From an uncultured virus (IMG/VR IMGVR_UViG_3300042549_004976) (lineage: Duplodnaviria > Heunggongvirae > Uroviricota > Caudoviricetes): a stretch of 64,000 nt of DNA. Shown here piece by piece: positions 2,373 through 64,000 of this stretch (its first letter is position 1; each line of letters opens with the position of its first letter). The notes under the pieces were generated by a model. It had not been told where the DNA came from, ran no database searches, and was given only the letters and a program-made list of their open reading frames with translations. Both the position numbers and the translations under genes were made by a program. The stretch is from IMG/VR virus record IMGVR_UViG_3300042549_004976; one strand, given 5' to 3'.

Positions 2373-2382
2373 GGAGTACCAT

Positions 2383-6054: not shown

Positions 6055-6106
6055 GCAATCGTGCAACACAACAATATTGGATATACCTATTCTATAAGGA
6101 GTACAT

Positions 6107-7566: not shown

Positions 7567-7973
7567 TGGCACTACAGATCACAGGCAGCGGGAAACCTAT
7601 ATTTACTGATATAGATCCCACCTTTACAAAGAATCCCAAGACAGGTGATCTGCTCACCATCAGGGATGATTTGGCTGTCCGCACATCTATACGCAATTTG
7701 ATGTCCACCGCTTTCGGTGAACGGTTGTTTCAACCCACCATTGGTGGATCGCTGCGCTCACTACTGTTTGAACCAATTGATGCCATTACCACAATGGAAA
7801 TTCACGACAGAATTTTGATGACTATCCGCAACCACGAGCCACGAGTTGGTCAGGTGGTGGTGGATGTGACCGCAAGTCCAAACGAAAACTACTATACGGT
7901 TGTGGTGGAATACGCCATACAAGCCGTTGGCAAACAAGATAGAATCTCGGTTGTCCTAGAAAGGGTGCGCTGA
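7566..7973 (+). CDS. gp25: Baseplate wedge subunit gp25
   Basis: FTDIDPTFTKNPKTGDL...SIRNL...GERLFQPTIG...LLFEP...HEPRV; directly upstream of gp6. Confidence 0.93.
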   Translation: MALQITGSGKPIFTDIDPTFTKNPKTGDLLTIRDDLAVRTSIRNLMSTAFGERLFQPTIGGSLRSLLFEPIDAITTMEIHDRILMTIRNHEPRVGQVVVDVTASPNENYYTVVVEYAIQAVGKQDRISVVLERVR

Positions 7974-38036: not shown

Positions 38037-40040
38037 ATGGCATTTAGAGTAAGTCCTGGCGTAAGTATCAAAGAAATCGACCTGACCACAGTTGTTCCTG
38101 CTGTCGCAACCACTCCTGGTGGTTTTGCTGGCTACTTCCACTCTGGTCCTGCGGACGAAATCGTTACCGTAACAAACCAAACGGAACTTGTCAGTATCTT
38201 CGGCAAGCCGCAGAACGACAACTATGTGGACTTCTTTACGGCAGCAAACTTCCTGTCGTATGGAAACAATATGCAAGTGGTTCGTGTGCTTGGATCTGCT
38301 TCCAGAAACTCTTCGGTTGGTAAGGGTGGCACAGCAGGTTTTGCCACAGGCACCTTGCTTATCACCAACTCAACACAATTTGGAGCAAGCGCAGGTCTTT
38401 CTGCATCCGCTCCTGCTGAAGCAGGAGCCTTGTTTGCTTCCAAGTATCCTGGTGTTATTGGAAACAGCGTGAAAGTTGTTGTTACAACTGGATCAGGAAC
38501 CACCACAGGAGGACTTTCTGCTGCTGCTCTTATGGGAGCCAGTTCATTAACAATTAAGGCACCTGGTACCACTTATGGATTTAGTGTGGGTGACGAAATT
38601 ACATTTGCAGACGGAACATCAGTCACTGTAAGCGGTGTGTCTGGAAGAAGTGCAACTGCTGGAGACATTTTTGGTGTTACTGGTACTGTGGCTTCGGGAG
38701 TTTCGGTTACACTGCAAACACTACTGCCCACGGCTCAACTCATCAACGCAACATATACGCACAAGAGCGTTTACGCAAAGTCGATTGGTTCCACCTCTTT
38801 CACCACTCCATATGCTTTTGACGCAGGTGGATCGGGAGATCAGATCAATGTGCTTGTTCTTGACAAGGACGGCACATTATCAGGAACAGTAAACACTGTG
38901 CTTGAGAAGTTTGAAGGCTTGTCTCGCGCAGAGGACGCAAAGAAGTTTGACGGCAGTAGCAATTACTACCGCACAGTAATAAACGAGCAGTCCAAGTATG
39001 TCTGGGCACTATCACGCGATATGGCATCCAACACAGGATTTACTGCTACCAAGACAAATTGGAATACGCTTGGTGTTTCGCTTGCATCTCAAACCCACTT
39101 GGCAGATAGTGTAAACTCTTTCCATCTATCGGGAGCCGTTTCTGCTGCACCAACTGTATCCGAACTGTACGCAAACGGATGGAACAAGTTTGCCGATGCG
39201 GATGCAGTGGATGTGTCTCTGCTTCCAATGGGTGGGGCTTCAGCCACTCTTGCTCAACTAGTTGTGCAGAATGTCTGCGAGAAGCGTCTTGACTGCATGG
39301 CATTCGTTTCTCCAGCACAGAGTGATGTTGAAAATAAATTGCCGTATGAAGCCTTGAACAACCTCAAGACTTTCCGCGACAGCACCTTCAACATTAACTC
39401 ATCCTACGCAGTCATTGACAGCGGTTGGAAGTACCAGTTGGACACCTACAACAATGTGCTTCGGATTATGCCTCTGAACGCAGACATTGCAGGATTGGTT
39501 GCTCGTACCGAGTTCACCAACGAAGCGTGGTTCTCGCCAGCAGGATTCAATCGTGGTCAACTGAAGAATGTTGTTAAGTTGGCGTACAATCCATCTGCGG
39601 AAGCACATCGTGACGAGTTGTACACCCGTCAGGTAAACCCTGTGGTATCTTTCCCAGGCGAAGGGGTAATCCTGTTCGGTGACAAAACCGCTCAGTCCCG
39701 TCCAAGTGCGTTTGATCGCATCAATGTGCGCCGTCTGTTCATTATTCTTGAGAAGGCAATTGCCACGGCTTCAAAGTTCTTCCTGTTCGAGCAGAACGAT
39801 GCGTTCACTCGCTCTCAGTTCAAGAACCTTGTTGTTCCGTTCCTCAAGACTGTTCAGCAGCGTAGAGGCATCACCGATTTCAAGGTGGTGTGTGACGAAA
39901 CCAACAATACGGGTGAAGTAATTGACCGCAACGAGTTCGTGGCTGATATATTTGTAAAGCCAACCCGCAGCGTCAATTTCATCTCTCTTAATTTTATTGC
40001 AACAAAGACAGGCGTTAGTTTCACCGAAGTCGGAGCGTAA
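38037..40040 (+). CDS. gp18: Tail sheath protein gp18
   Basis: SPGVSIKEIDLT...FFTAANFLSYGN...WFSPAGFNRG...FGDKT...SAFDRINVRRLF...FEQND.FTR. Confidence 0.98.
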   Translation: MAFRVSPGVSIKEIDLTTVVPAVATTPGGFAGYFHSGPADEIVTVTNQTELVSIFGKPQNDNYVDFFTAANFLSYGNNMQVVRVLGSASRNSSVGKGGTAGFATGTLLITNSTQFGASAGLSASAPAEAGALFASKYPGVIGNSVKVVVTTGSGTTTGGLSAAALMGASSLTIKAPGTTYGFSVGDEITFADGTSVTVSGVSGRSATAGDIFGVTGTVASGVSVTLQTLLPTAQLINATYTHKSVYAKSIGSTSFTTPYAFDAGGSGDQINVLVLDKDGTLSGTVNTVLEKFEGLSRAEDAKKFDGSSNYYRTVINEQSKYVWALSRDMASNTGFTATKTNWNTLGVSLASQTHLADSVNSFHLSGAVSAAPTVSELYANGWNKFADADAVDVSLLPMGGASATLAQLVVQNVCEKRLDCMAFVSPAQSDVENKLPYEALNNLKTFRDSTFNINSSYAVIDSGWKYQLDTYNNVLRIMPLNADIAGLVARTEFTNEAWFSPAGFNRGQLKNVVKLAYNPSAEAHRDELYTRQVNPVVSFPGEGVILFGDKTAQSRPSAFDRINVRRLFIILEKAIATASKFFLFEQNDAFTRSQFKNLVVPFLKTVQQRRGITDFKVVCDETNNTGEVIDRNEFVADIFVKPTRSVNFISLNFIATKTGVSFTEVGA

Positions 40041-40709: not shown

Positions 40710-42350
40710 ATGGCTATCAAACTTTTTGGCTTTTCTATTGGTAAAGAAGAGAAGGAGACTTCCAAGGATGAACTTCCAAAGAAGTCTCTTTCTTTTGTAG
40801 CACCTGATCAGGATGACGGCGCGATTCCACTAGAAGTGGGTGGTTACTTTGGAACCGCTGTTGACTTTGACGGCGCAATCAAAACCGATCTAGACCTTAT
40901 CAAGAAATATCGTGACATGGCAATCCACCCTGAAGTGGAGTCTGCTATTGCTGATATCTGTAATGAGTCTATTGTGTATGACGATACTTTTACTACGGTA
41001 AAGATCGACACCACAAACATTAAGTACAGCAAGTCTATTAAAGACAAAGTGGAATCGGAGTTTGAAGAAGTCCTGAAACTCATGAATTTCTCTCGCCGTG
41101 GTTTTGAGATATTCCGCAAATGGTATGTGGACGGACGAATTTATTACCACATCATTATTGATGAAGCCAACAAGAAGAAGGGCATTCTTGAAATTCGTCC
41201 TATTGATCCCACGAAGATTCGTAAGATTCGTAAGATTCACAAGAAGCCCATGTCACAGCAGTCTCCCCTTGGTGTTCAAATAGTAACATCGGTGGAAGAG
41301 TTCTATGTGTACAACGAACAAGAGCCTGGTTCCACTGCGCTCTCGATTGAAGGGTTAAAGATCTACCCTGATTCCATCTGCTTTGTTCACAGCGGACTGT
41401 ATGACGGATATCGCAAGAAAGTAATTGGATATCTGCACAAGGCTATCAAGGCTTTGAATCAACTTCGCATGATTGAAGACGCAGTGGTGATTTATCGCAT
41501 TACTCGCGCACCAGAACGCCGTGTGTTCTATGTGGATGTTGGTAACCTGCCCAAGCAGAAGGCAGAAGAGTATGTGCGTGGACTCATGCAGAAGTACCGC
41601 AACAAACTCATGTACGATCCACAGACAGGTGAGATTGCAGATTCCCGCAAGCATATGTCCATGCTTGAAGACTTTTGGATGCCTCGCCGCGAAGGTGGTC
41701 GTGGCACAGAAATCTCAACGCTTGAAGGCGGACAGAATCTTTCGGAAATGGAAGATGTAAAGTACTTCCAAAAGAAACTCTTTCAATCGCTTAATGTTCC
41801 CACCTCTCGTATGGAAGAATCCACTGGATTCAACATGGGCAGGTCTTCAGAGATTTCACGCGATGAAGTGAAATTCTTTAAGTTCATTGAACGACTCCGC
41901 ATGAAGTTCTCTGAAGTATTCCTTGAACTGCTGCGTGTGCAGTTGGTTCTCAAGGGAGTTATTCGTGAGGACGAGTGGGCAGATATTGAAAGCCGTCTAA
42001 TATTCAAATTTGCAAAGGATTCGCATTTCTCCGAACTCAAGGAAAGCGAAGTTCTCAAAGATCGTCTTGCCAGTGCACGGGAAGCAGAGGATTTTGTTGG
42101 CAAGTACTATTCTCGTGAATGGGTACGCAAGATGATTCTGCGTCAAACCGAAGACGATGTGGAGCAGATCGACAAGCAGATCAAGGAAGAAAAGGCTTCA
42201 GGAGTTATTGCTCCACCTGAAGGTGCTGTTCCTCCTGAAGCGCAGCAAGCCCAACCTCCTGCTCCAGCCCCTGCTGCGGGTGGGGACGGACAACCACAGG
42301 TAACTATTGGTGAAATCGTCCCTGATGACGAAAAGGAGTGGAACTCGTAA
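40710..42350 (+). CDS. gp20: Portal protein gp20
   Basis: KLFGF, YR.MA.HPEV, WYVDGR, LHKAIK.LNQLRMIEDA.VIYRITRAPERRVFYVDVGNLPK, EDFWMPRREGGRGTEI. Confidence 0.98.
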   Translation: MAIKLFGFSIGKEEKETSKDELPKKSLSFVAPDQDDGAIPLEVGGYFGTAVDFDGAIKTDLDLIKKYRDMAIHPEVESAIADICNESIVYDDTFTTVKIDTTNIKYSKSIKDKVESEFEEVLKLMNFSRRGFEIFRKWYVDGRIYYHIIIDEANKKKGILEIRPIDPTKIRKIRKIHKKPMSQQSPLGVQIVTSVEEFYVYNEQEPGSTALSIEGLKIYPDSICFVHSGLYDGYRKKVIGYLHKAIKALNQLRMIEDAVVIYRITRAPERRVFYVDVGNLPKQKAEEYVRGLMQKYRNKLMYDPQTGEIADSRKHMSMLEDFWMPRREGGRGTEISTLEGGQNLSEMEDVKYFQKKLFQSLNVPTSRMEESTGFNMGRSSEISRDEVKFFKFIERLRMKFSEVFLELLRVQLVLKGVIREDEWADIESRLIFKFAKDSHFSELKESEVLKDRLASAREAEDFVGKYYSREWVRKMILRQTEDDVEQIDKQIKEEKASGVIAPPEGAVPPEAQQAQPPAPAPAAGGDGQPQVTIGEIVPDDEKEWNS

Positions 42351-44736: not shown

Positions 44737-46191
44737 ATGGCAGAAGAAAAGTTTCTAACCGAGGCGGCTATCCGTAAGTGGAAGCCTGTTCTCGATCACA
44801 AGGACATGAGTCCTATCACGGACGCTCACAAGCGTGCAACAATGGCAACTCTTTTGGAGAACCAAGAGAAGGCAATCAAGGAGCAAATGCTCGTTGAAGT
44901 CAGCCCAGGCAACGCAGTTGGTAACGGTATGTCCTCCACCATCAGCGGCAATGCTTCGATGCAGGGTTACGATCCAATTCTTATCCAATTGGTTCGTCGC
45001 GCCATGCCAAATCTCATGGCATACGACATCTGCGGCGTTCAGGCTATGTCGGCTCCGACAGGCTTGATCTTTGCAATGCGTACCAAGTACGGTGCACAGT
45101 CTGGCACCGAGGCTCTGTTCCAGGAACCAATGACCACATACAGTGGTTCGTCCTCCGCTAACAGTAGCGGTGGTTCGGGTGCTGCTGCTGGTGGTGCAGC
45201 CGTTGGTAACACTGCTGCATTCGGTTCAAACATTGGTGTTGATCCGTTTGCTGGTCTTCCAGGTCTTGGCGATCCAAACAGCGTCAGTGGTATCACCACT
45301 GGTTCGGGTATTCGTACTACGACTGGTGAAGGTGAAGCACCAAACGAGATGGCATTCAGTATCGAGCGCGTGGCTGTTCAGGCTGCAACTCGTATGCTTG
45401 CTGCCTCGTACAGCGTTGAACTTGCTCAGGATCTCAAGGCTGTTCACGGGCTTGATGCCGAGACTGAACTTGCGAACATTCTCAGCACGGAAATTCTTGC
45501 TGAAATCAACCGCGAAGTTGTCCGTACTGTGTACAAGACAGCCAAACTCGGTGCACAGCAGACCGACCTTTACTACAAGACCGTAGTTGGTGGTCTGTCC
45601 GCTGCTGGTACTGCCACAGTCGGTGGCGTGTACGATCTCATTCAGGACTCAGATGGTCGTTGGAGCGCGGAAAAGTTCCGTGGTCTGATGTTCCAGATTG
45701 AGCGTGAATGCAATCAGATCGCCAAGGATACCCGTCGCGGTAAGGGCAACTTCATCATCTGCTCCGCAGATGTTGCTTCAGCCCTCGCAATGGGTGGTTT
45801 CTTGAACATCTCACCTGCTCTTAACACCACCCTTGATGTTGATGACACTGGCAATACCTTTGCTGGTACCCTCAACGGCAAGATCAAGGTGTACATTGAT
45901 CCGTACATCGACACCACTGCAACCAGTGGCAGCAACTTTGTACTCACGGGATACAAGGGCAGCAGCCCATACGATGCAGGTATCTTCTACTGCCCGTATG
46001 TTCCGCTTCAGATGATGCGTGCTGTTGATACTTCTACCTTCCAGCCAAAGATGGCATTCAAGACCCGCTACGGCATGGTCGCGAACCCCTTTGCAGAAGG
46101 CACAACCGTTGGTTTCGGCGGTATCAAGACTCGCGCAAATGTCTACTACCGTATCTTCCGCGTGGACAACCTCCACGGCGTGGCTTCGTAA
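44737..46191 (+). CDS. gp23: Major capsid protein gp23
   Basis: KWKPVL, LLENQE, DPILI.LVRRAMP.L.AYDICGVQ.M..PTGLIFAMR, ELAQDLKAVHGLDAE.EL.NILS.EI..EINRE, FQPK..FKTRYG. Confidence 0.99.
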   Translation: MAEEKFLTEAAIRKWKPVLDHKDMSPITDAHKRATMATLLENQEKAIKEQMLVEVSPGNAVGNGMSSTISGNASMQGYDPILIQLVRRAMPNLMAYDICGVQAMSAPTGLIFAMRTKYGAQSGTEALFQEPMTTYSGSSSANSSGGSGAAAGGAAVGNTAAFGSNIGVDPFAGLPGLGDPNSVSGITTGSGIRTTTGEGEAPNEMAFSIERVAVQAATRMLAASYSVELAQDLKAVHGLDAETELANILSTEILAEINREVVRTVYKTAKLGAQQTDLYYKTVVGGLSAAGTATVGGVYDLIQDSDGRWSAEKFRGLMFQIERECNQIAKDTRRGKGNFIICSADVASALAMGGFLNISPALNTTLDVDDTGNTFAGTLNGKIKVYIDPYIDTTATSGSNFVLTGYKGSSPYDAGIFYCPYVPLQMMRAVDTSTFQPKMAFKTRYGMVANPFAEGTTVGFGGIKTRANVYYRIFRVDNLHGVAS

Positions 46192-55613: not shown

Positions 55614-55796
55614 ATGTTTGAGCGCAACAACCGTGACTACGACAGTAGCGACCCGAACGCAAAGAAGGCTCGTAAGAGTGTGGAGCGAAAGCATAAGAGC
55701 AGCCGCCGCCACGATCAGAAAGAAATTTTGAAAAGATTTGTGGAAGACTCTAATGCAGGAAAGCGAGAAGATTATGACAACGAAGACCAAGACTAA
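55614..55796 (+). CDS. Small charged hypothetical protein
   Basis: GAGGA RBS; fills the rnh-gp45 gap; basic middle, acidic end. Confidence 0.5.
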   Translation: MFERNNRDYDSSDPNAKKARKSVERKHKSSRRHDQKEILKRFVEDSNAGKREDYDNEDQD

Positions 55797-56475
55797 TGTG
55801 GTGAAGATTTCCAAGCGAACACTTGATATACTCAAGAACTTTGCTAGTATTAATTCAGGAATTCTAGTGAACGAGGGTAACAAGTTGAATACCCTGTCGT
55901 CCACTAAGAATATCCTTGCCGAAGCAAAGGTGGATGAAACCTTTGCCAAGTCGTTTGCTATTTGGGATTTGAACAAGTTCTTGGGAACCGTGAGTCTGTT
56001 CAAGGATCCTGAGTTCGTGTTTGAGGACAACTATATCACCGTGAAGTGCGGAAACTCAAGTGTTCGCTACTACTATTGTGATCCTCGTCTAGTGACTTCC
56101 ACAAGCAAGAAGATCAGTATGCCGTCCCCTGTGGTGCAGTTTGATCTGAAGTCGAAGGACTTTGCTGAGATCATCAAGGCGGCTTCGGTGCTTCAGGTAA
56201 CCCATCTGTGTGTGCGATCATCGGCAGACGGCAAGCACATCGAACTTGCAGCCACAGACAAGGCAGATAAGACCTCTAACTTCTATTCGGTGATTGTGGG
56301 GGAGAATGCTTCGGGTGCCACATTCGACTTTATCTTTGATGTGGATAATCTAAAGATTCTTCCAGGTGATTACGCTGTTGCGATTTCGGAGAAGGTGGTC
56401 AGTTCCTTCACGAATAAGAATGAACCTCTGACCTATTGGATTGCCCTGAACGCAGACTCAACATACAAGGCTTAA
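55774..56475 (+). CDS. gp45: Sliding clamp gp45
   Basis: KIS..T..ILKNFA.IN..I...GN.L.T....KNILAEA...F.IWDLN.FL...NLKILPGDY...YWIAL. Confidence 0.95.
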   Translation: MTTKTKTNVVKISKRTLDILKNFASINSGILVNEGNKLNTLSSTKNILAEAKVDETFAKSFAIWDLNKFLGTVSLFKDPEFVFEDNYITVKCGNSSVRYYYCDPRLVTSTSKKISMPSPVVQFDLKSKDFAEIIKAASVLQVTHLCVRSSADGKHIELAATDKADKTSNFYSVIVGENASGATFDFIFDVDNLKILPGDYAVAISEKVVSSFTNKNEPLTYWIALNADSTYKA

Positions 56476-56476
56476 A

Positions 56477-57430
56477 GTGATCTCAACAGAAACCGTGAAG
56501 GGATTGTGGTGCGAAAAGTATCGACCACAAACCGTTGCTGATTGTATTCTTCCATCTGAAACGCATGACCTGTTCCTGCAAATGGCGGAGCGAGGCGAAC
56601 CGCAGAATCTACTACTGAGTGGAGGAGCGGGTTGTGGCAAGACTTCTATTGCTAGAGCCTTGTGTAATGATTTGGGTTGTGACTATATTGTGGTGAACTG
56701 CTCCGAGGACGGAAACATTGATACTCTCCGTACCCGAATCAGAAACTTTGCGTCCACGGTGTCTCTTACCGAAGGCGTAAAGAAGGTGGTGATATTGGAT
56801 GAGTTTGACTACTCCAATGCACAGTCCACACAGCCAGCACTTCGGGGTTTCATTGAGGAGTTCTCGACCAACTGTCGGTTCATTCTTACCTGTAATTTCA
56901 AAAATAGAATCATTGAGCCGCTGCACTCCCGATGCACCTGTATAGATTTTCGTATACAGCAGAAGGAGAAGGCTCAGATTGCGGTAAAGTTCCTGAAACG
57001 AGCCACCGAGATTCTAGAAGCCGAGAGTATTGAGTACGAACCCAAGGTGGTGGCTCAACTCATTACAAAGTACTTTCCTGACTTTCGGCGTACCCTGAAC
57101 GAACTTCAGCGGTATTCCGTGAGTGGAAAGATTGATGTGGGCATTCTTCAGACCCTTGGGGATGTGCAGATCCGCGACTTGGTGAAGCACATGAAGGCAA
57201 AGGAGTTTGCCAATGTTCGTAGGTGGGTGGTGGACAACCTAGACAACGATCAGACACGGGTGTACCGCGCAATTTACGATAGCCTGTGTGATACGGTTGA
57301 GGGTGGGTCTATTCCCCAAGCCATTCTTATTCTTGCAGACTACCAGTACAAGGCGGCGTTTGCTGCGGATCACGAGATTAATCTCACGGCTTGCCTTGTG
57401 CAACTAATGATGGAGATTAAGTTCAAGTAA
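56477..57430 (+). CDS. gp44: Clamp loader large subunit gp44
   Basis: LW.EKYRP, G.AGCGKT, ILDEFDY, LHSRC, FPDFRR.LNELQRY. Confidence 0.97.
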   Translation: MISTETVKGLWCEKYRPQTVADCILPSETHDLFLQMAERGEPQNLLLSGGAGCGKTSIARALCNDLGCDYIVVNCSEDGNIDTLRTRIRNFASTVSLTEGVKKVVILDEFDYSNAQSTQPALRGFIEEFSTNCRFILTCNFKNRIIEPLHSRCTCIDFRIQQKEKAQIAVKFLKRATEILEAESIEYEPKVVAQLITKYFPDFRRTLNELQRYSVSGKIDVGILQTLGDVQIRDLVKHMKAKEFANVRRWVVDNLDNDQTRVYRAIYDSLCDTVEGGSIPQAILILADYQYKAAFAADHEINLTACLVQLMMEIKFK

Positions 57431-57675
57431 TGGCACGGAATCGCAGCGTAAAAAAAGGCAGAGTCTTCAAAGATTTCAAGGACAGGCGTGAGTATCAGAC
57501 TGCGTTGACCCCTGATGATTTTCCTGATCCCCCGTATTACTCCATAATGCCTAAAGAAATACGGCAAATGATGAAACAGGATATTACCCGTTTGACAAGG
57601 GTTCAACTAGATGAACTGTTCCGCATCAGCAAGCAGTACAGAAAAGAATATAACCGCAGAAAGAGTAGCCGATGA
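57430..57675 (+). CDS. Small basic hypothetical protein between gp44 and gp62
   Basis: TAATG-coupled to gp44 and ATGA-coupled to gp62. Confidence 0.65.
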   Translation: MARNRSVKKGRVFKDFKDRREYQTALTPDDFPDPPYYSIMPKEIRQMMKQDITRLTRVQLDELFRISKQYRKEYNRRKSSR

Positions 57676-58064
57676 CTCACACCCTGAGTGATTATTTAAA
57701 TGCCATCAATGTTTCAAAGGATCCGCTACTAGACAGTAGCGAGTCTTACACGAAGCAGTCGTATCCACCGTTCGTGGTTACCCGTTGCCTGTCGTATTTC
57801 CCCGATACCCTGTTCGCGGCAAACGAGATGAATACTCGTCCCCTTATAGATTCAAAAATGCACTTTGACTTCCTGCGGGGAGCAGTTCGTCCCCGTAAGC
57901 GGTTCTCCAAATGGCTAAAGCGGGAAGACGATAGTCGTGTGGCGGCTCTAGTGGAGTACTACGGTATATCTTCCCGCAAGGCGCGAGAAGCCCTGTCTGT
58001 GCTGTCCGAAGCCGATCTAGAGGAGATTGTTGCCGCTGTGGATAAAGGTGGACGAAGCAAATAA
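57672..58064 (+). CDS. gp62: Clamp loader small subunit gp62
   Basis: DYLNAIN..K...Y.PFVV.RCLS.F.DT...ANEMN...RKRFSKW...YYG.S..KA.EAL. Confidence 0.93.
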   Translation: MTHTLSDYLNAINVSKDPLLDSSESYTKQSYPPFVVTRCLSYFPDTLFAANEMNTRPLIDSKMHFDFLRGAVRPRKRFSKWLKREDDSRVAALVEYYGISSRKAREALSVLSEADLEEIVAAVDKGGRSK

Positions 58065-58072
58065 TCTAAATA
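58065..58072 (+). promoter_or_regulatory. T4-type late promoter (TCTAAATA) upstream of regA and the glycosylation operon
   Basis: Same octamer as upstream of gp13 and gp19; intergenic. Confidence 0.5.
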
Positions 58073-58112
58073 CTTCCATGTGCGGTTCCGAATTATCAGG
58101 AGTGAGCAGAAC

Positions 58113-58550
58113 ATGGAAGCAGATGAACGATATATTGATCTTGAAACCACTGATCTGCTAGAGATCAGTCTACAGAAACCCGATGACTTTCTTAAAGTCC
58201 GTGAAACCTTGACGCGTATTGGCGTGTCGTCTCGCGCAGAAAAGAAGTTGTGGCAATCATGCCATATTCTGCACAAGAAGGGTAAATATTACATTGTGCA
58301 TTTCAAGGAAATGTTTGCCCTAGACAGTTTGCCTACCTCCATAAATAGTGAGGACATTGGACGGCGTAACACCGTTGCGTGTCTCCTTGAGGAGTGGGGG
58401 CTGATTAAGATCGTGGACAAAACCAAGATTACAGAAAAAGTGCCACTCAACAAAATAAAGATCCTTCCATTCAAGGAGAAGGGTGAGTGGGAATTGTGTC
58501 CTAAATATCACATCGGTCGTTCCAAGAAGAACATCAAGACCGAAGAGTAG
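58113..58550 (+). CDS. regA: Translational repressor RegA
   Basis: PDDFLKVRETLTRIGV.S....L.QSCHILHK.G.YYIVHFKE.F.LD...RRN...LL..WGL...W.L.PKY.IG. Confidence 0.97.
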   Translation: MEADERYIDLETTDLLEISLQKPDDFLKVRETLTRIGVSSRAEKKLWQSCHILHKKGKYYIVHFKEMFALDSLPTSINSEDIGRRNTVACLLEEWGLIKIVDKTKITEKVPLNKIKILPFKEKGEWELCPKYHIGRSKKNIKTEE

Positions 58551-58568
58551 ACAACGGAGATTTATATT

Positions 58569-59276
58569 ATGAGCAGACTTGTGATCAAGTTCCCTACGCG
58601 GAACCGACCTGAAAAATTCAAAACCGTCTTTTCCCGCTACCTCACCTTCTTGAGTGGACGGCATGATGTTCGTTTCATCCTGTCAATGGATGAGGATGAT
58701 CTCACCATGAATAATCCTGAAATGCACCAGTGGATTTCCACTCGTGCAGAGAACGCACAGATTGAGTGCTTCTACGGGAACTCTAAGTCCAAGATTGAGG
58801 CTTGCAATGCCAACCTAGAGGGTGTTGACGGCGATGTACTGCTGTTGGCATCAGATGACATGGTGCCCGTGCAGATGGGATACGATGATATAATCTTTGG
58901 TGCTTTCTCTCAAGCCTTTCCTGACTTTGATGGTGCAATCAAGTTTTGGGATGGTCTGCGTCCAAAGGAAGACCCGCTGATGACTCTCACAGTCATGGGC
59001 TTCCCCCTGTACAAGCAGTTCGGATACATTTACAATCCTGAGTACAAGTCTCTGTACTGCGACAACGAGCAGACACAGGTTTGTGCTGCGCTGAACAAGT
59101 TGCGCCGTTGCGACCTGTGCATTATTCAGCACCAGTGGACGGGTGAGCCATTCGACACCCTCCACGCTCGTAACGAAAACGCGGAGATGTACGGGGTGGA
59201 CGGTGAAACATTCAAGCGCAGAGGCGCAAATAAATTTGATATGGAGGAAATGTTCAATGCCAGTATCAGCAAGTGA
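58569..59276 (+). CDS. Glycosyltransferase (GT-A fold, GT2-like)
   Basis: IKFPTRNRP, SKIEACN, LLLASDDM (DxD-like), YCDNE.T, IIQHQW. Confidence 0.8.
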   Translation: MSRLVIKFPTRNRPEKFKTVFSRYLTFLSGRHDVRFILSMDEDDLTMNNPEMHQWISTRAENAQIECFYGNSKSKIEACNANLEGVDGDVLLLASDDMVPVQMGYDDIIFGAFSQAFPDFDGAIKFWDGLRPKEDPLMTLTVMGFPLYKQFGYIYNPEYKSLYCDNEQTQVCAALNKLRRCDLCIIQHQWTGEPFDTLHARNENAEMYGVDGETFKRRGANKFDMEEMFNASISK

Positions 59277-59895
59277 AATCAAGTTCAGCATCCTGATGCT
59301 GTCCATTCCCGAACGCATCGAATCCATGACCGCTGCGGTGAAGCATCTACAAGAGCAAGCCGATGCTGTAGGACAAGGCAAGGCGGTAGAGATTCTTGTG
59401 CTGTTGGACAATCGCTCCAAGAGCATTTCCGAGAAGCGTAATGACCTCCTGCAAATGGCACGGGGTAAGTACATTGCGTTCTTGGACGATGACGATGCAG
59501 TCAGCAAGGACTACATGAGTAAGATCCTGACCGCTATTGACCAAAACGATGTTGACTGCATCTCATTCAACCAGTGGTGCAGCATCAACGGCGAACCAAT
59601 GGATGTGGAGTTCGGCATCGGAAATCCCCACGGGCAGTTGTGGCGGGACGAAGACGGCTTCCTTGGTGACATCAAGCGTCCACCGTACCATATGTGCCTG
59701 TGGCGCAGTGATATTGCCAAGAGTGAATCTTTTAATCCTGTATATGGAGCCAACGGGCAGTCTTCGGAAGACATTGATTGGCTCATGCGCCTGTACCCCA
59801 AGATTCAGACGGAACATCACATTGATGACTCGTTGCACGGGTACATCTATAGTTCCGAGACAACCACCTCCCTTGTTCCACAGGAGCAGCAATGA
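59257..59895 (+). CDS. Glycosyltransferase family 2
   Basis: GGAGG RBS; FSILM....R, SI.EKRN.LL..ARGKYIAFLDDDD, SEDIDW. Confidence 0.85.
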   Translation: MPVSASEIKFSILMLSIPERIESMTAAVKHLQEQADAVGQGKAVEILVLLDNRSKSISEKRNDLLQMARGKYIAFLDDDDAVSKDYMSKILTAIDQNDVDCISFNQWCSINGEPMDVEFGIGNPHGQLWRDEDGFLGDIKRPPYHMCLWRSDIAKSESFNPVYGANGQSSEDIDWLMRLYPKIQTEHHIDDSLHGYIYSSETTTSLVPQEQQ

Positions 59896-60584
59896 AAGTA
59901 ATATCGTTCAGCCTGTGGGGCGACAAGCCCACATACACCGTTGGTGCGGTCAAGAATGCCGATCTTGCGGCTACGCTGTTTCCTGATTGGACTTGTATGT
60001 TCTACTGCTTTAGTTCTGTTCCAAAAGAAATAATTGCAGAACTACAATCCCGTAAGAATGTGATTGTACGGATGATAGACGGTGATTATAATTCGGAAGA
60101 CAGCCGTGGTATGTTCCACCGATTCCTTCCCGCTGATGAAGAAGGCGTAGAGTACATGATGTCCCGTGACACAGATTCCCGTCTATCCGAGCGTGAGCGG
60201 CTTGCTGTTGAAGAGTGGTTGGCTAGTGGAGCCGATCTCCATGTTATGCGTGATCATCCGTATCACGGTGCGCCAATACTTGGTGGTATGTGGGGGGTTA
60301 AGGGCGGAAAACTCAAGGGTATTGCTCGTGACATGGAAGAGTTTCAGCCAAGCAGCGATAAGGGACAAGACCAGTCTTTCCTGTGGGAATGGGTGTGGAG
60401 CAAGGTTACTGATGATGAAATCACCTGCTGTGTACACGATCCATTTTTTCAGAAGGCTCCGTTCCCTACTGGTGCTACTCGTGGAGAAACCAATGGTGGA
60501 GTGTGGTTCGTAGGACAAGTCTTTGACGAGAACGACAAATACAATAGTGAACAGGACACAAATTTGGTTAGAGATATCCTATGA
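59892..60584 (+). CDS. Putative glycosyltransferase (GT-A-like)
   Basis: VISFSLWG...Y..GA..N, MFHRFLP, SRDTDSR (DxD), HVMRDHPYH, ILGGMWG, DQSFL. Confidence 0.6.
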   Translation: MKVISFSLWGDKPTYTVGAVKNADLAATLFPDWTCMFYCFSSVPKEIIAELQSRKNVIVRMIDGDYNSEDSRGMFHRFLPADEEGVEYMMSRDTDSRLSERERLAVEEWLASGADLHVMRDHPYHGAPILGGMWGVKGGKLKGIARDMEEFQPSSDKGQDQSFLWEWVWSKVTDDEITCCVHDPFFQKAPFPTGATRGETNGGVWFVGQVFDENDKYNSEQDTNLVRDIL

Positions 60585-60952
60585 AAATTGAAGTATCAAA
60601 TGGTGAAATAGCAGACAAGGTTTCTATTTTGATGATAAAGAAAGAACGCCTTATTGACGACAGCAAGATCATAAATGTATCAAAAGAACTAGAGGAGATT
60701 ACTCCTGATTTTTTGATAATAATGAATTTTGATCACCCTCTGTATCTTGAACTCAAACAAGTAAATTCTTCTCTTTGGGATATAGAAGATCAAATTCGTG
60801 ATAAAGAACGAGTAAAACTTTTTGACGATGAGTTTGTCTCTCTTGCTAGAGCAGTATACTTTATAAACGACAAAAGAGCAGAAATAAAGAAGACAATAAA
60901 CACTATTACGGGATCTTCTTTGACTGAAGAAAAGTCCTATGCCAAATATTGA
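60581..60952 (+). CDS. DUF6165-like protein
   Basis: EVS.GE..DK.SIL.IK...L..VN..LWDIED.IR...F..LARAVY..ND.RA.IK..IN...GS...EEKSY. Confidence 0.7.
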   Translation: MKIEVSNGEIADKVSILMIKKERLIDDSKIINVSKELEEITPDFLIIMNFDHPLYLELKQVNSSLWDIEDQIRDKERVKLFDDEFVSLARAVYFINDKRAEIKKTINTITGSSLTEEKSYAKY

Positions 60953-61634
60953 TGTGAATCCAAATACACTATATGTTCACCATCATCTTGGTCTAGGTGA
61001 CCATATCATTTGCAATGGTCTTGTCCGATTCCTGTTGAAACAAACCAATGCTAATGACCTTTGGTTGGTGGTGAAACGCAAAAACTTCAATAATGTCTCT
61101 AGAATGTTTTTGGACGATTCTCGCATCAAGTTTATACCCGTTGACGAGGATAAGAATTTCTACGAACTTCCATTAGAATGGTCTAATGTTCGTTTGGCTA
61201 GAATTGGATTTGAGCGATGCCGAGAGACAGATTTTGATGTTTCATTTTATGACTCCACAGGAATCCCTTTCACGGAAAGATGGAATTCTTGGTACTATCA
61301 GCGAGATTTAGAATGTGAACAAACGATGATGCAGGAATTGTTATTGCCTGAAAAGTTTGTGTTGGTTCACGATACTTCTAGTGTTGGTATTTTTGATCTA
61401 AAGATCAATACCAATTTACCTGTGATTCGTGTTTCGCGTTTGAACAGTGAGAAAACCATGTTTGATTGGATTGGTGTTATAGAACGAGCAACTGAAATAC
61501 ACTGCATAGATTCGTCTTTCATTCATCTAGTGAATTCTGTTGATTTGGTAACCGACTCTTTGTTCTATCACAAAATAAAGTCAAGCAAGATGCAGATTTG
61601 TTTTCGTAAAAATTGGTCTGTAATAGAATATTAG
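60939..61634 (+). CDS. GT-B / GT9 (heptosyltransferase)-like protein
   Basis: HHHLGLGDHII at the N-terminus; IERATEIHCIDSSFIHL at the C-terminus. Confidence 0.65.
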   Translation: MPNIDVNPNTLYVHHHLGLGDHIICNGLVRFLLKQTNANDLWLVVKRKNFNNVSRMFLDDSRIKFIPVDEDKNFYELPLEWSNVRLARIGFERCRETDFDVSFYDSTGIPFTERWNSWYYQRDLECEQTMMQELLLPEKFVLVHDTSSVGIFDLKINTNLPVIRVSRLNSEKTMFDWIGVIERATEIHCIDSSFIHLVNSVDLVTDSLFYHKIKSSKMQICFRKNWSVIEY

Positions 61635-61646
61635 GAATATGTTTTT

Positions 61647-62390
61647 ATGAATAGTAGAATCAATGTATTGATCCCTATGGCTGGTCGTGGAGAACGATTT
61701 TCTTCCGTGGGTTATGATCTTCCAAAACCATTAATAGAAATTAATGGACGACCCATGATAGAATGGGCATTGCGTAGTTTAGATGTGGATTTTTACCTAC
61801 ACAATTTTATTTTTGTTGTACGAGACTATCAGAATGATGAAATCAACAATCGGATTGCATCAGTTCTAACCTGTCTTGTGCCAAACAATAAAATTGTAAA
61901 AATTGATTATGTCACGGAAGGACCAGCGTGTACTTGCTTGCTTGTTCGTGATATGATTGACAACGATTCTCCTCTTATGGTTGGAAACTGCGATCAAATT
62001 ATGAGATGGAATGGATCATACTTTGTAAGCAGTTGTTTAAATTCTCCATATGATGGAGTAGTGGTTACCTATGATGAAAGCACTCCAAAAAATAGTTACG
62101 CCAAATTGAATTCTCGTGGAGATGTGATTCGAATCGAAGAAAAAAATGTCATAAGCAATGTGTCTTTGAATGGTATACATTTTTGGAAACACGGTTCGGA
62201 TTTTGTTAGTTCTGCGGATTCCATGATAGAAAGTAATGAGCGGTATAACAATGAATTTTATGTTGGACCAACATATAACCACATGATCAAGACGGGAAAG
62301 CGAGTTGGCATTTTTCACATACCACGCGAATGTCATAATCCAGTCGGTGTTCCGAGTGATCTTGGAGACTTCTTGGAAAAAAATAAATGA
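61647..62390 (+). CDS. Sugar-phosphate nucleotidyltransferase (BcbE-like / NTP_transferase family)
   Basis: VLIPMAGRGERF...GY.LPKPLI.I.G.PMI, TEGPACT, NCDQ, EK..IS...G...W, NEFYV.P.YN, G.P.DL. Confidence 0.85.
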   Translation: MNSRINVLIPMAGRGERFSSVGYDLPKPLIEINGRPMIEWALRSLDVDFYLHNFIFVVRDYQNDEINNRIASVLTCLVPNNKIVKIDYVTEGPACTCLLVRDMIDNDSPLMVGNCDQIMRWNGSYFVSSCLNSPYDGVVVTYDESTPKNSYAKLNSRGDVIRIEEKNVISNVSLNGIHFWKHGSDFVSSADSMIESNERYNNEFYVGPTYNHMIKTGKRVGIFHIPRECHNPVGVPSDLGDFLEKNK

Positions 62391-62716
62391 AGAAATATAA
62401 ACTTAAAGATATGCATAGAGGATGGTTAATTGGTGATTTTGAACCGTCTGTGCTAAGGACGCAAGATTTTGAGGTGGGTGTTCTCACTCACAAAAAAGGC
62501 GAACATTGGGATGAACACTATCACAAGATAGCAACCGAAATCAATGTGTTGGTTGAAGGAAGTATGACGATAAACGGCATACATATAGAGGTTGGAGACA
62601 TCTTTATCATTGAGCCAAACGAATCCTCTGCTCCAATTTTTCTAGAGGATTGTAGAGTGCTGTGCGTGAAAACCCCTTCTGTGATTGGAGATAAATATGC
62701 AACTATTCGTGAATGA
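62387..62716 (+). CDS. Cupin-fold protein
   Basis: GWLIGDFEP; HYHKIATE metal motif; GDIFIIEP.E second motif. Confidence 0.85.
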   Translation: MKKYKLKDMHRGWLIGDFEPSVLRTQDFEVGVLTHKKGEHWDEHYHKIATEINVLVEGSMTINGIHIEVGDIFIIEPNESSAPIFLEDCRVLCVKTPSVIGDKYATIRE

Positions 62717-63890
62717 GTCTGCACTTGACAGCGAAAAGTATTTCGTAGTCACCTACAAGTTGGAGTCCGACAAGAACCTACGCGATGCCGCTTGGAACAT
62801 TGCCATCGGTCAGAGTGTTGGTAATCCAAATGTGCGGAACCGTTGGGAGACAGAGGATTTGTTTAAGAATCACTCTTGTCTAATACTCGCTGACGAGATT
62901 GAACTACAGAACAAGACATCAGGAGAAGTCAAGATTGCGTTCCCCGTGATCAACACTGATTGGGAAACAGATGGAATCAGCCATCTGCTGTGTCAGATCA
63001 TGGGTGGTCATGTTGATATTGACTTGGTGAAGAAGTGCCGCGTAGTCAAGTTGGATCTTCCACAAAGTGTTACCAAGCACTTCGCAGGACCAAAGTTTGG
63101 CATCAGTGGTATGAGGAAGTTCACGGGTCAGTACGAAAAGCCACTGCTTGGCGCGATCATCAAGCCCAAGATCGGTATCACTCCAGAAACCCTGTTGGAC
63201 ATGGTTAAAGAACTCGTTGATGGCGGAGTTGACTTCATCAAGGAAGACGAGATCATGTCAAATCCGTCTTTCTGTCCACTAGACAAGCGTGTGCACATGA
63301 TTTCAAATTATCTGCGCTCACAATCTCGTAATGTAGTATTTTGTCATACCATCAACTGTGATCCGCACATTCTTGCGGGTCGTGTTTGCAGAATCCACTC
63401 CCTTGGCGGAAACGGTGTACACATCAATGTGTGGAGCGGATATGGTGCTTACAACAGCATTCGAAAACTAGATCTTCCAATCTACCTGCATTTCCAAAGC
63501 AGCGGTGCAAAGGTTGCGACAAGCGTAAACAATCAGTTCAGTATTAGTTGGTCTGTGATTTGTCAGTTGGCTACTCTCATGGGTGTAGACACCATTCAGA
63601 CAGGAATGGTGGGAGGTTACAGCAATGACGATCCTCAAGAAATACTTGAGTGCATCAAGGTGCTACGAGAAGGAAACACAGTTCCTGCACTCAGTTGTGG
63701 CTTGCATCCAGGATTGGTTGACAAGATTACATCTCTTGTCGGAAATGACTATCTTGGGAATGCGGGTGGAGCCATTCACGGTCATCCAAACGGAACATTG
63801 TCTGGTGCGAAAGCGATGCGACAATCCGTTGATAAGACATACGGAACAGAATATACACACGCAATTGAAAAGTGGGGAAAGATACTATGA
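62697..63890 (+). CDS. RuBisCO-like protein (form IV-type large-subunit homologue, probably non-carboxylating)
   Basis: GGAG RBS; GPKFGI.G.R, PLLGAIIKPKIG, GGVDFIKEDE, PALSCGLHPG, GGAIHGHP.G...GAKAMRQ, A..KWG. Confidence 0.92.
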   Translation: MQLFVNESALDSEKYFVVTYKLESDKNLRDAAWNIAIGQSVGNPNVRNRWETEDLFKNHSCLILADEIELQNKTSGEVKIAFPVINTDWETDGISHLLCQIMGGHVDIDLVKKCRVVKLDLPQSVTKHFAGPKFGISGMRKFTGQYEKPLLGAIIKPKIGITPETLLDMVKELVDGGVDFIKEDEIMSNPSFCPLDKRVHMISNYLRSQSRNVVFCHTINCDPHILAGRVCRIHSLGGNGVHINVWSGYGAYNSIRKLDLPIYLHFQSSGAKVATSVNNQFSISWSVICQLATLMGVDTIQTGMVGGYSNDDPQEILECIKVLREGNTVPALSCGLHPGLVDKITSLVGNDYLGNAGGAIHGHPNGTLSGAKAMRQSVDKTYGTEYTHAIEKWGKIL

Positions 63891-64000
63891 AGTGGAAAGA
63901 AGATTTGACTCACGACATTAGATTTGGTTCGGTTGTAGACGATATTGACCACCCAATTCCTGAATTGGGATTGAAACCAGCAAGCCCTCCTGCTGAATTC
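63887..64000 (+). CDS. Partial CDS continuing the operon (MKWKEDLTHDIRFGSVVDDIDHP...)
   Basis: ATGA overlap with the RuBisCO-like gene's stop; open to the window end; too short to assign. Confidence 0.6.
   Translation, partial: MKWKEDLTHDIRFGSVVDDIDHPIPELGLKPASPPAEF

Follow-up and report, generated by a model that had tools for sequence, protein, structure and literature searches.

The window analysed here, a 64,000-nucleotide stretch of DNA from a freshwater T4-like phage (a myovirus), ends in nine plus-strand genes that lie directly 3′ of regA and are all co-directional in its ORF listing (Table 1). The initial annotation had described these genes as consecutive and nearly all overlapping, which was confirmed, with all four ATGA overlaps present at 59892, 60581, 62387 and 63887. 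In the plus-strand listing, the frame of the RuBisCO-like protein (RLP, ORF8) starts at 62685 or 62697 and stops at 63890, the open frame of ORF2 begins with a GTG at 59143, with the ATG at 59257 taken as start, and the ATG at 63887 opens a frame running past the window end. A chimeric join of the segment was ruled out by contigs from four lake-water runs, none of them flagged as a possible source, which tile positions 57500-64000 with zero differences and zero joints, and by the repetition of the order regA, glycosyltransferases, nucleotidyltransferase (NTPt), cupin and RLP in four contigs drawn from different IMG/VR data sets (L001-L004). The regA/ORF1 junction is bridged by X8 record 17, X10 record 1 and X9 record 27, and the NTPt-cupin-RLP stretch by X9 record 32 and X8 record 23.

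Table 1. Genes at the right end of the window and the evidence on which their names rest.
Gene	Coordinates	Strand	Length	Description	Evidence
regA	58080-58550			immediately 5′ of ORF1	phrog_242, E 1.8e-56
ORF1	58569..59276	+	235 aa	glycosyltransferase-like	phrog_14945 'glycosyltransferase', E 6.6e-7
ORF2	59257..59895	+	212 aa	GT2-family glycosyltransferase	PF00535, E 1.6e-9; phrog_8858, E 4e-33
ORF3	59892..60584	+	230 aa	no known family	ATGA overlap with ORF2
ORF4	60581..60952	+	123 aa	DUF6165	PF19662, E 2.2e-14
ORF5	60939..61634	+	231 aa	possible GT9-like half	Atlas lead only
ORF6 (NTPt)	61647..62390	+	247 aa	nucleotidyltransferase, conserved RLP partner	PF00483; phrog_3980, E 2e-57
ORF7	62387..62716	+	109 aa	small cupin	phrog_24762, E 2e-36
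ORF8 (RLP)	62697..63890	+	397 aa	RuBisCO-like protein, form IV-like	PF00016, E 4.7e-37
F5	63887..64000	+	first 38 codons	CmcI/Methyltransf_24-type methyltransferase	ATGA overlap with RLP stop

Among the five genes that follow regA, the earlier labels fared unevenly. The GT2 assignment of ORF2 and the DUF6165 assignment of ORF4 are both supported by their Pfam matches, and ORF1 takes its glycosyltransferase label from phrog_14945 only, since Pfam and NCBIfam searches gave no match. Family searches with ORF5 were likewise negative, and its nearest named Atlas cluster, GT9 (score 0.92, 165 shared features), is a weak lead only; in giant-virus clusters of the Atlas, ORF5-like domains are found fused to DUF6165. 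The 'GT-A-like' label of ORF3 found no family match in Pfam, PHROGs, NCBIfam or PDB sequences. The conservation of these genes was followed in a viral census covering the best 80 of 180 confirmed IMG/VR loci with this RLP, made by profile searches whose profiles were derived from the very loci counted. Relatives of ORF1 (by tblastn), of ORF2 (family F48, 207-216 aa) and of ORF4 (F49) each occur in 5 of these 80 loci, and those of ORF3 (F25) in 8. With 5 to 8 occurrences among the best 80 of 180 loci, the window's own glycosyltransferases are variable cargo, and the idea that the four upstream glycosyltransferase-like genes are conserved pathway partners was not sustained.

At its right end, the window enters an island of 18 genes and about 13 kb, all for soluble glycan-biosynthesis proteins, whose downstream part was read on L002, a 100%-identical contig. 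There, the complete gene of F5, the CmcI-like methyltransferase (L002:11191-11811), matches PF13578 (E 3.9e-6) and PF04989 (E 2e-4), and the downstream genes include WavE, a GT1-like gene, DUF3431, UDP-galactopyranose mutase, a NAD epimerase/dehydratase and a GT2-TPR gene. A GDPD-like phosphodiesterase gene lies 3.3 kb beyond the window end; its family, F2, has a predicted GDPD fold (AlphaFold2 pLDDT 96), with top Foldseek matches that are all GDPDs at probability 1.0, and carries the HRG...EN...ExD...HD motif. The transferases are of the WavE/DUF7796 GT-A-like type: hhalign relates F4 (DUF7796) to WavE (91.7%, 166 columns), and the model of F9, which has a GT-A fold, matches PBCV-1 A64R (2p6w) and mimivirus R655 (9crz) among others. 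No flippase, polymerase or polyprenyl-phosphate transferase is found in the island, and in none of its proteins does any hydrophobic 19-residue window exceed 1.54. The conserved core of the island comprises five genes, namely those for the NTPt, the small metal cupin, the RLP, the SAM methyltransferase and the GDPD-like phosphodiesterase.

Regarding the two genes immediately preceding the RLP, the NTP-transferase and cupin labels were both borne out; the qualifier 'BcbE-like' was returned by none of the searches. The NTPt exceeds the PF00483 cut-off (28.2 bits against 21.2) and matches PDB 4evw_A over its full length (E 1.6e-16). This subfamily is uncharacterised; 4evw, its best solved relative, bears a generic name only, and no NCBIfam equivalog cut-off was reached. 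The Pfam match of the cupin is weak (Cupin_7, E 0.039), and its assignment follows from phrog_24762, from its family profile, which matches PDB cupins at 6e-6, and from the retained motif G-x5-HxH-x4-E-x6-G, in which the metal-binding H44, H46 and E51 are invariant across 41 sequences.

The linkage of these genes to the RLP, which the initial annotation had proposed to check, is conserved. Among the best 80 of 180 viral loci, the NTPt is found in 77; two of the three misses end within 900 nt upstream of the RLP, and the remaining one (L040) lacks it despite full flanks. In the same 80 loci, a miniature GDPD-like phosphodiesterase occurs in 68, a WavE, DUF7796 or F9 transferase-like protein in 61, the cupin in 53, and an F5 or FkbM methyltransferase in 59, with F5 itself in 34. 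Nearly all of these matches lie on the same strand as the RLP (NTPt 83/83, cupin 53/53, GDPD-like 67/68, F5 methyltransferase 36/37). Additionally, two metagenomic proteins, P0121 (817 aa) and P0122 (813 aa), are triple fusions in which the RLP occupies residues 1-392, the NTPt 398-637 and the cupin 710-815 (E-values of at most 1e-195, 1e-47 and 1e-37, respectively), and P0149 joins an NTPt to an F5 methyltransferase in one protein (E 4e-106 and 4e-79).

The cassette is not phage-specific. Of 46 cellular loci with an RLP of 35% identity or more, 42 also carry the NTPt, and one lacks it despite full flanks (L082). The NTPt is found in none of the 24 loci that encode more distant RuBisCO forms, from which the clade is separated in the tree by a branch with 100% SH-aLRT support. 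Cellular carriers of the pairing include SAR11, DPANN, Beckwithbacteria, Legionellaceae and Azospirillum, and a Beckwithbacteria sequence (L090) falls inside the clade, just outside the group containing all viral sequences. GT17, GT61, GT2, Bac_transf, GtrA and RmlD-like genes are found in the RLP loci of SAR11, Woesearchaeota and Francisellaceae. Legionella nautarum has a LicD-family gene (E 1e-42) that adjoins the RLP-NTPt pair on the opposite strand. LicD lies near the pair in four related Legionellaceae loci, directly adjacent in L123, but in no other cellular locus and in none of the best 80 of 180 phage loci, so that it counts as one lineage. Phage RLPs as such were already known: in the available text of Jaffe, Castelle, Dupont and Banfield (2019, Mol Biol Evol; PMC6389311), 'form IV-like' proteins of phages, some of them Myoviridae, and of Beckwithbacteria are reported with a function termed 'unclear' and with no account of their gene context. 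By that description, they resemble the present clade in being divergent RLPs of myovirus-type phage contigs from diverse environments that group with Beckwithbacteria and keep key RuBisCO residues only in part. In contrast to what is described there, the present clade is tied to a cassette of NTPt, cupin, methyltransferase and GDPD-like genes and extends to SAR11, DPANN, Legionellaceae and others.

Because the adjacency is conserved, natural triple fusions exist and the pairing is limited to this RLP clade, the linkage is strongly supported, and RLP, cupin and NTPt probably form one functional unit. The cupin is not obligatory, since 27 of the best 80 of 180 viral loci and 34 of the 46 cellular ones do without it. 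As the unit sits in glycan-biosynthesis gene clusters, a biosynthetic role is the best reading. Hence, of the pathway proposed in the initial annotation, the functional unit stands and its biosynthetic direction is retained as the best reading, and the upstream glycosyltransferases fall outside its conserved partners. The rearrangement of a pentose or ketose phosphate into a branched sugar that it proposed, the nucleotide used for activation and the suggested targets (virion, host surface or DNA) are hypothetical. A literature search found no paper on the RLP-NTPt-cupin linkage.

The RuBisCO-like label of ORF8 was upheld by PF00016, and its best NCBIfam (E 1.2e-54) and PDB (8dht and 2cwx) matches are type III RuBisCOs, which would favour a functional carboxylase, or else a form III-type member of an AMP/nucleotide-salvage pathway. 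However, the score of 185.9 bits is far short of the cut-off of 497, every other NCBIfam equivalog cut-off was also missed, and neither an AMP phosphorylase nor an R15P isomerase is encoded nearby in the window or downstream on L002. Moreover, N123→G, H294→Q and K334→Y replacements are found in 106 of 106 distinct clade sequences, to which the window RLP adds R295→S and H327→Q, whereas N, H and K are retained at these three positions in 22 of 22 outgroup sequences. All 106 retain K175, K177, K201, D203, E204, S379, G381 and G403. Since N123, H294 and K334 are replaced while K175, K177, K201, D203 and E204 are kept, the RLP is predicted to be an enolising enzyme and not a carboxylase, which leaves the carboxylase explanation scarcely credible. 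The many canonical residues replaced, and the fusion and adjacency to the NTPt, could also suggest a non-catalytic scaffold or regulator of the latter. This is highly improbable, given that, over all 106 sequences and identities down to 35%, neither the carbamyl-lysine/Mg2+ triad nor K175 and K177 vary, and that the replacement residues G, Q and Y are themselves invariant, the pattern of a remodelled but active site.

Two other explanations retain catalysis and differ in its purpose. An RLP gene adjoining a small cupin gene is also the arrangement of the DeepYkr RLP and cupin methylsulfurylase of the MTA-isoprenoid shunt. The available part of its description (PMC5893883) indicates that the adjacent genes of Rhodopseudomonas palustris (RPA2169/RPA2170) and Rhodospirillum rubrum act sequentially on a pentulose phosphate, the RLP by enolisation/isomerisation and not carboxylation, with 5-methylthioribulose-1-P undergoing 1,3-isomerisation and then methylsulfurylase cleavage to DXP. 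Accordingly, the RLP and cupin could be a variant of MTA/5-deoxyribose salvage that recycles or detoxifies by-products of SAM enzymes, the glycan neighbours being incidental; SAM methyltransferases in 59 of the best 80 of 180 loci, radical-SAM genes in some RLP loci and a faint N-terminal similarity of the NTPt to IspD (E 1.6e-5, below cut-off) are compatible with it. However, no MtnP/MtnA/MtnK-type or IF-2B-family gene occurs in the nine ORFs of the window, the 13 downstream ORFs of L002 or the annotated recurrent neighbour families, and MtnW models score far under their cut-offs. The phage cassette further differs in its glycan-cluster setting and in that it is the NTPt, near-universal and fused to the RLP, that is obligate, while the cupin is dispensable, which makes salvage unlikely. 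A catabolic or scavenging cassette is considered equally unlikely: the GDPD-like enzyme would cut a host phosphodiester (a glycerophosphodiester or else a teichoic-acid-like polymer), and the sugar phosphate thereby set free would be passed on to central metabolism by the RLP and cupin. GDPD-family enzymes are hydrolases, phage tail GDPD domains are among the fold matches (9f5m), and RLPs act likewise in apiose breakdown, where the OiaX/OiaT type (NF042437) combines a RuBisCO fold with no carbon fixation and acts on a branched/keto sugar phosphate. In fact, the model of OiaX, a characterised non-MSP RLP and catabolic decarboxylase, matches the phage RLP at E 3.9e-44, but with 151 bits against a cut-off of 700, and the apiose genes have another context. 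What speaks against catabolism is that the RLP has as its obligate and fused partner a nucleotidyltransferase, an enzyme that activates and does not degrade, and that it is surrounded by transferases, methyltransferases and epimerases rather than by kinases, aldolases or transporters.

The biosynthetic reading finds parallels in two groups of known systems. CDP-alcohol and CDP-ketose donors, such as CDP-ribitol (TarI/TarJ), CDP-choline (LicC/LicD) and the CDP-6-fructose/glucitol of Campylobacter capsules, are made by routes in which a pentulose or hexulose phosphate gives rise to a sugar or polyol phosphate, which an NTP_transferase-fold enzyme activates for transfer to a glycan. The LicD gene near the Legionellaceae RLP-NTPt pair recalls these routes, unlike the censused phage loci and other cellular loci, which have none; no RuBisCO-fold enzyme, cupin or GDPD is known to us in any such pathway. 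The island also resembles the cytoplasmic glycosylation machinery of chloroviruses and mimiviruses in consisting of soluble transferases and sugar-modifying enzymes only, in the F9 matches to A64R and R655, and in the DUF6165 and ORF5-like domains of giant-virus clusters; to our knowledge, no RLP step occurs in those systems.

Taken as a whole, it is rather probable that the RLP cassette is a sugar-activation pathway feeding glycan modification, in six steps. The RLP, through its carbamyl-lysine/Mg2+ site and K175, would enolise a keto-sugar monophosphate, yielding an isomerised or rearranged product, on which the cupin may perform a metal-dependent follow-up reaction, as in the MTA-isoprenoid shunt. 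The NTPt, judging from its family membership, would attach an NMP to the phospho-sugar or phospho-polyol so formed, and the methyltransferase would O-methylate the product. GT-A-like transferases, of the WavE/DUF7796/F9 type here and LicD in Legionellaceae, would then put the unit on a glycan. The phosphodiesterase may either supply a phosphorylated precursor or edit a phosphodiester-linked product; such an enzyme is unusual in nucleotide-sugar synthesis and would fit salvage or breakdown just as well. The RLP clade therefore points to a putative building, that is, biosynthetic, job for RuBisCO-like enzymes.

The gene neighborhood of the RuBisCO-like protein (RLP) was evaluated in viral sequences, where 180 contigs carrying an RLP relative were confirmed; the best 80 of these 180 were kept with their flanks, their ORFs were clustered, and profiles from those clusters were searched against the loci. 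It was verified that the linkage between RLP and its partners is conserved, since the nucleotidyltransferase (NTPt) was found in 77 of these 80 loci. Two of the three remaining loci end just upstream of the RLP gene, and the viral locus L040 is the sole real exception. Two layouts recur, one in the order NTPt, cupin, RLP, methyltransferase and, further on, GDPD, and another in the order GDPD, NTPt, RLP, F9 (a GT-A-fold family) and FkbM. The initial annotation had joined four upstream glycosyltransferase (GT)-like genes to RLP, cupin and NTPt in a candidate activated-sugar pathway. As pathway partners these upstream genes are rare in RLP loci and represent variable cargo; the RLP-cupin-NTPt core of that interpretation was retained and its particular glycosyltransferases were not.

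The PHROG scan identified the window as a segment of a T4-like myovirus, with nearly every gene on the plus strand. The nine genes following regA were recovered in an ORF listing together with their four ATGA overlaps (59892, 60581, 62387 and 63887), as previously described. Family searches confirmed ORF2 as GT2, ORF4 as DUF6165, ORF6 as an NTP-transferase and ORF8 as a RuBisCO large-chain homologue, and ORF7 proved to be a cupin by its PHROG match, conserved motif and PDB profile search, together with a weak Pfam match. The proposed GT labels of the other genes fared less well: for ORF1 the sole match came from PHROG, for ORF5 ("GT9-like") there was just a weak GT9 lead from a protein atlas, and ORF3 ("GT-A-like") had zero family matches in any search. 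The segment is genuine and not chimeric, as contigs from four lake-water runs, unflagged as possible sources, cover it without difference or joint and span both the regA-ORF1 junction and the NTPt-cupin-RLP block. Neither blastn over 58569-64000 nor tblastn with RLP produced a match among 50,697 deposited phage records, a set from which very near records were possibly omitted, and a promoter and terminator scan of 57900-64000 gave nothing above shuffled controls.

Features of the viral window and of the RLP island in its longer counterpart L002, with their occurrence in viral RLP loci (best 80 of 180)
Feature	Position	Viral loci	Evidence or remark
Baseplate wedge genes	window		PHROG scan
Tail sheath	38037-40040		PHROG scan
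Tail tube	window		PHROG scan
Portal	40710-42350		PHROG scan
Prohead protease; scaffold	window		PHROG scan
Major head protein	44737-46191		PHROG scan
UvsY; dCMP deaminase; UvsW-type helicase; late sigma factor; gp47/46-type nuclease	window		PHROG scan
Sliding clamp	55738-56475		PHROG scan
Clamp loader	56477-57430 and 57672-58064		PHROG scan
regA	58080-58550		PHROG scan
ORF1	58569-59276	5/80	tblastn
ORF2 (GT2)	59257-59895	5/80	family clustering
ORF3	59892-60584	8/80	family clustering
ORF4 (DUF6165)	60581-60952	5/80	family clustering
ORF5	60939-61634	6/80	best 80 of 180
ORF6 (NTPt)	61647-62390	77/80	profile search
ORF7 (cupin)	62387-62716	53/80	profile search
ORF8 (RLP)	62697-63890		
CmcI/Methyltransf_24-type methyltransferase (F5)	starts 63887		partial in window, full in L002
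F5 or FkbM methyltransferase		59/80	profile search
349-aa unknown; WavE-family; GT1-like	L002, in this order after F5 and before F2		
WavE, DUF7796 or F9 protein		61/80	profile search
GDPD-like protein (F2)	L002:14544-14984, outside window	68/80	146 aa; profile search
DUF3431; UDP-galactopyranose mutase; NAD epimerase/dehydratase; GT2-TPR	L002, in this order after F2		

Some further observations concern the window itself. The G+C content is 0.389 at 60001-62000 vs 0.43-0.48 in the adjoining bins, and single contigs of run X8 depart from the window at 59890/59920, 60727, 61883 and 63336/63367; together, these data suggest that co-occurring strains differ in gene content at the DUF6165-ORF5 segment. 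In Nucleocytoviricota clusters, DUF6165 (ORF4) and the ORF5-type domain (together 60581-61634) are joined in single proteins, some of which also contain GNAT domains, so ORF4 and ORF5 probably form one functional unit. At the opposite end, the baseplate block opens with a protein of 1237 aa whose N-terminus bears a PAAR-like motif (2341-6054; phrog_281, E 8.8e-12), and structural ORFs of very large size, 1612 and 1638 aa, occupy 9801-14639 and 17528-22444, the latter matching phrog_358 (E 4e-240) and phrog_877 (E 1e-107), both PHROGs of unknown function.

The same association was found in cells. Scanning one genome per prokaryote species yielded 70 loci, and NTPt was present in 42 of the 46 in which RLP is at least 35% identical and in none of the 24 with more distant RuBisCO forms. 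Three of the four NTPt-less loci lie on short or cut contigs, and the fourth, L082, is a real exception. The NTPt-carrying loci belong to SAR11, including a complete Pelagibacter chromosome, Verrucomicrobia, Planctomycetota, Beckwithbacteria, Woese-, Nano- and Micrarchaeota, Legionella nautarum, L. maceachernii, L. drozanskii, Tatlockia, Francisellaceae, Azospirillum oleiclasticum and Turneriella. Among the 46 loci, a GDPD-like protein occurs in 27 and a cupin in 12. In the tree, the distant RuBisCO forms separate on a branch with 100% SH-aLRT, and the NTPt-linked clade has cellular lineages at its base and the viral sequences nested inside, the midpoint root serving for drawing only; a small SAR11 group is found within the viral part. 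The cellular neighborhoods are surface-glycan clusters, in which RLP is surrounded by GT17, GT61, GT2, GT9, Bac_transf, GtrA and RmlD-like genes, FkbM/RfbT-like methyltransferases and full-length GDPD. In Legionella nautarum, a LicD-family gene adjoins RLP-NTPt on the opposite strand, LicD being confined to four Legionellaceae loci among the loci searched. Additionally, a first search returned 3034 RLP-related proteins, and each of the 120 best listed shares 70% identity or more with the window RLP.

Two side observations were made on these loci. Among loci with full flanks, only L082, a 66-kb bacterial MAG contig, and the viral L040 carry RLP with no NTPt detectable within 7-10 kb. In the Woesearchaeota locus L098, the genes flanking the RLP cassette encode a fusion of GHMP kinase with NTP-transferase and a radical-SAM enzyme of the B12-binding type (6067-7869 and 12210-13820).

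Regarding the RLP itself, both RuBisCO domains scored above threshold (PF00016, 128.3 bits vs a gathering score of 30.1; PF02788, 21.7 vs 20.7), whereas all models of named functions remained below their cut-offs. These comprised rubisco_III (185.9 bits vs 497.45, NCBIfam), PRK04208 (178.5 vs 438), PRK13475 (109.1 vs 489), the MtnW/YkrW models for 2,3-diketo-5-methylthiopentyl-1-phosphate enolase (NF007095, 161.4 vs 409; TIGR03332, 132.8 vs 513.6) and OiaX, the 3-oxo-isoapionate-4-phosphate decarboxylase (NF042437, 151.1 vs 700). Solved form III enzymes, aligned with HMMER, served to place residues in spinach numbering, and these residues were checked in 128 distinct sequences, of which 106 are clade members and 22 an outgroup of other RuBisCO forms. 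All 106 clade sequences retain K175, K177, K201, D203, E204, S379, G381 and G403, the first five corresponding to K156, K158, K182, D184 and E185 of the window RLP, and all 106 carry the replacements T65 to N, N123 to G, H294 to Q and K334 to Y; the E60 position is an invariant G in the clade alignment. In the clade, R295 is replaced by K or S and H327 is H or Q, and the window RLP presents G104, Q267, S268, Q301 and Y308 at N123, H294, R295, H327 and K334, five positions retained by the 22 outgroup sequences. Since both the metal/carbamate residues and the replacements are invariant across the clade, this is the pattern predicted for an Mg2+/carbamate enolising site that was remodelled and stays active, and not for decay. 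To judge from these residues, carboxylation is not the function of the RLP, which nonetheless appears to be an active enzyme.

NTPt exceeded the PF00483 gathering score (28.2 bits vs 21.2) but reached no named equivalog, the best being rmlA_long (40.4 vs 320), and its best solved relative, 4evw, is a structure with a generic name only. The cupin contains motif 1 (G-x5-H-x-H-x3,4-E-x6-G) as G38, H44-x-H46, E51 and G58, with H44, H46, E51 and G58 unchanged across 41 sequences, and its family profile retrieved cupins from the PDB at E 6e-6; its Cupin_7 match, at 14.2 bits vs 27, missed the Pfam gathering score. A predicted complex of the RLP dimer with the cupin scored 0.31 vs a mark of 0.32, a value that weighs neither for nor against their association. 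Across 42 sequences of F2, H6, E18, N19, E35, D37 and H51 never vary and R7 and D52 hardly do, fitting the N-terminal GDPD motif HRG...EN...ExD...HD. The F2 profile matches the GDPD 7e0v (E 1.3e-4), and its model (pLDDT 96) shows a compact GDPD-like domain whose best Foldseek matches, at probability 1.0, are without exception GDPDs; with its 146 aa, F2 falls well short of the length of solved GDPDs (217-253 aa).

Natural fusions provided a second line of evidence. In P0121 (817 aa) and P0122 (813 aa), both metagenomic, RLP, NTPt and cupin are fused in this order into one chain, each domain scoring strongly, and P0149 joins NTPt to an F5-type methyltransferase. Without recourse to gene order, such fusions tie four of the cassette proteins to a single pathway, and the triple fusions represent a ready single-polypeptide system to identify the reaction. 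Further long forms of the NTPt subfamily include tandem NTPt-NTPt and HAD-NTPt proteins. Zymomonas, Agrobacterium and Rhizobium carry the tandem fusions. Proteins of about 454 aa that join HAD_2 to a nucleotidyltransferase and share 44-47% identity with the window NTPt are very numerous (P0160-P0243), and one of them (L086:755-2125) shares a Pelagibacter glycan island with the RLP cassette.

Cupin and F9 occur together in none of the 80 viral loci, and F9 is found in 19 of the 27 cupin-less ones; F9 lies directly 3' of RLP in cupin-less loci such as L011, L016, L059 and L062. This mutual exclusion prompted the consideration of F9 as a cupin stand-in, which was ruled out by its predicted GT-A fold, in a model of moderate quality (pLDDT 77, TM-scores 0.4-0.5); such a fold would make F9 a transferase, not a counterpart of the cupin. 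The exclusion may be a lineage effect only, or could reflect either lineage or functional replacement. As a separate matter, the DUF7796 protein F4 was considered as a LicD relative and rejected, being related to WavE.

The remainder of the island was found on L002, a 113-kb IMG/VR contig 100% identical to the window over the region, where dUTPase and UvdE come next after the island; this UvdE UV endonuclease lies at L002:20444-21190. The UDP-galactopyranose mutase of this phage island (L002:15595-16689; PF03275, E 1e-74) would imply galactofuranose in the product glycan. Because no hydrophobic 19-residue window above 1.54 (Kyte-Doolittle) was found in any of the 18 island proteins, the island is predicted to encode soluble enzymes only, and it includes no flippase, polymerase or initiating transferase. 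By analogy, such an all-soluble set fits cytoplasmic glycosylation of virion proteins in the chlorovirus style, or action on host lipid-linked intermediates. Glycosylation of hydroxymethyl-cytosine DNA receives no support from a PF00303 (thymidylate synthase/dCMP hydroxymethylase) search, which found none in the 113-kb contig, estimated to be 62% complete.

Unplaced RuBisCO homologues were already seen in the GOS paper (PMC1821046). Jaffe et al. 2019 (PMC6389311) described phage RLPs, about 80 in number and in part from Myoviridae, that group with Beckwithbacteria, with "possible functionality unclear". Set side by side by description, the present clade resembles that "form IV-like" clade in its myovirus-type phage DNA and in being placed with Beckwithbacteria, separate from the remaining RLP forms; in our tree, the Beckwithbacteria locus L090 falls inside the RLP clade, beside a virus-bearing group. 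In the literature outside subscription journals, Jaffe et al. 2019 was the only source on phage RLPs, and nothing was found on an RLP-nucleotidyltransferase link. The MTA-isoprenoid shunt, with its DeepYkr RLP and cupin, offers another likeness, an RLP gene next to a small cupin gene, and in the window the RLP start (62697) falls within the cupin gene (62387-62716); the MtnP/MtnA supply genes of that shunt are absent among the 22 island ORFs scanned.

We infer a pathway in which RLP would enolise and rearrange a keto-sugar monophosphate and the cupin would perform a metal-dependent next step, in the way a cupin is described to act after RLP in the shunt (PMC5893883). NTPt would then activate the product, the methyltransferase would modify it, and GT-A-like transferases would attach the methylated activated unit. 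The GDPD-like enzyme and the LicD of Legionellaceae suggest that the unit may be handled as a phosphodiester, that is, through a CDP-alcohol-type donor, which we regard as rather unlikely. The most far-reaching reading, which we hold to be less likely than not, is that RLP and cupin would make the phosphorylated precursor of an undescribed nucleotide-activated unit, for instance an NMP-linked keto- or deoxy-pentulose phosphate, subsequently O-methylated. SAR11, DPANN archaea and Legionellaceae would add this unit to their surface glycans, and T4-like phages to virions or to the cell they infect. Its attachment may be through a phosphodiester link, LicD acting as transferase and the mini-GDPD in editing or supply.

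At the sequence level, the core linkage and a biosynthetic role for this RLP appear well supported. To our knowledge, the characterised RuBisCO-like proteins all act in salvage or catabolism. An RLP clade wired to a nucleotide-activating enzyme by adjacency and fusion would hand the RuBisCO fold a biosynthetic job, which, if true, would be the first anabolic role of the superfamily besides carboxylation, and its product would add to aquatic microbes a glycan building block that is both new and widespread. Since the clade is abundant and present in SAR11, the cassette product may be a common part of aquatic cell and virion surfaces, bearing on phage adsorption and grazing.
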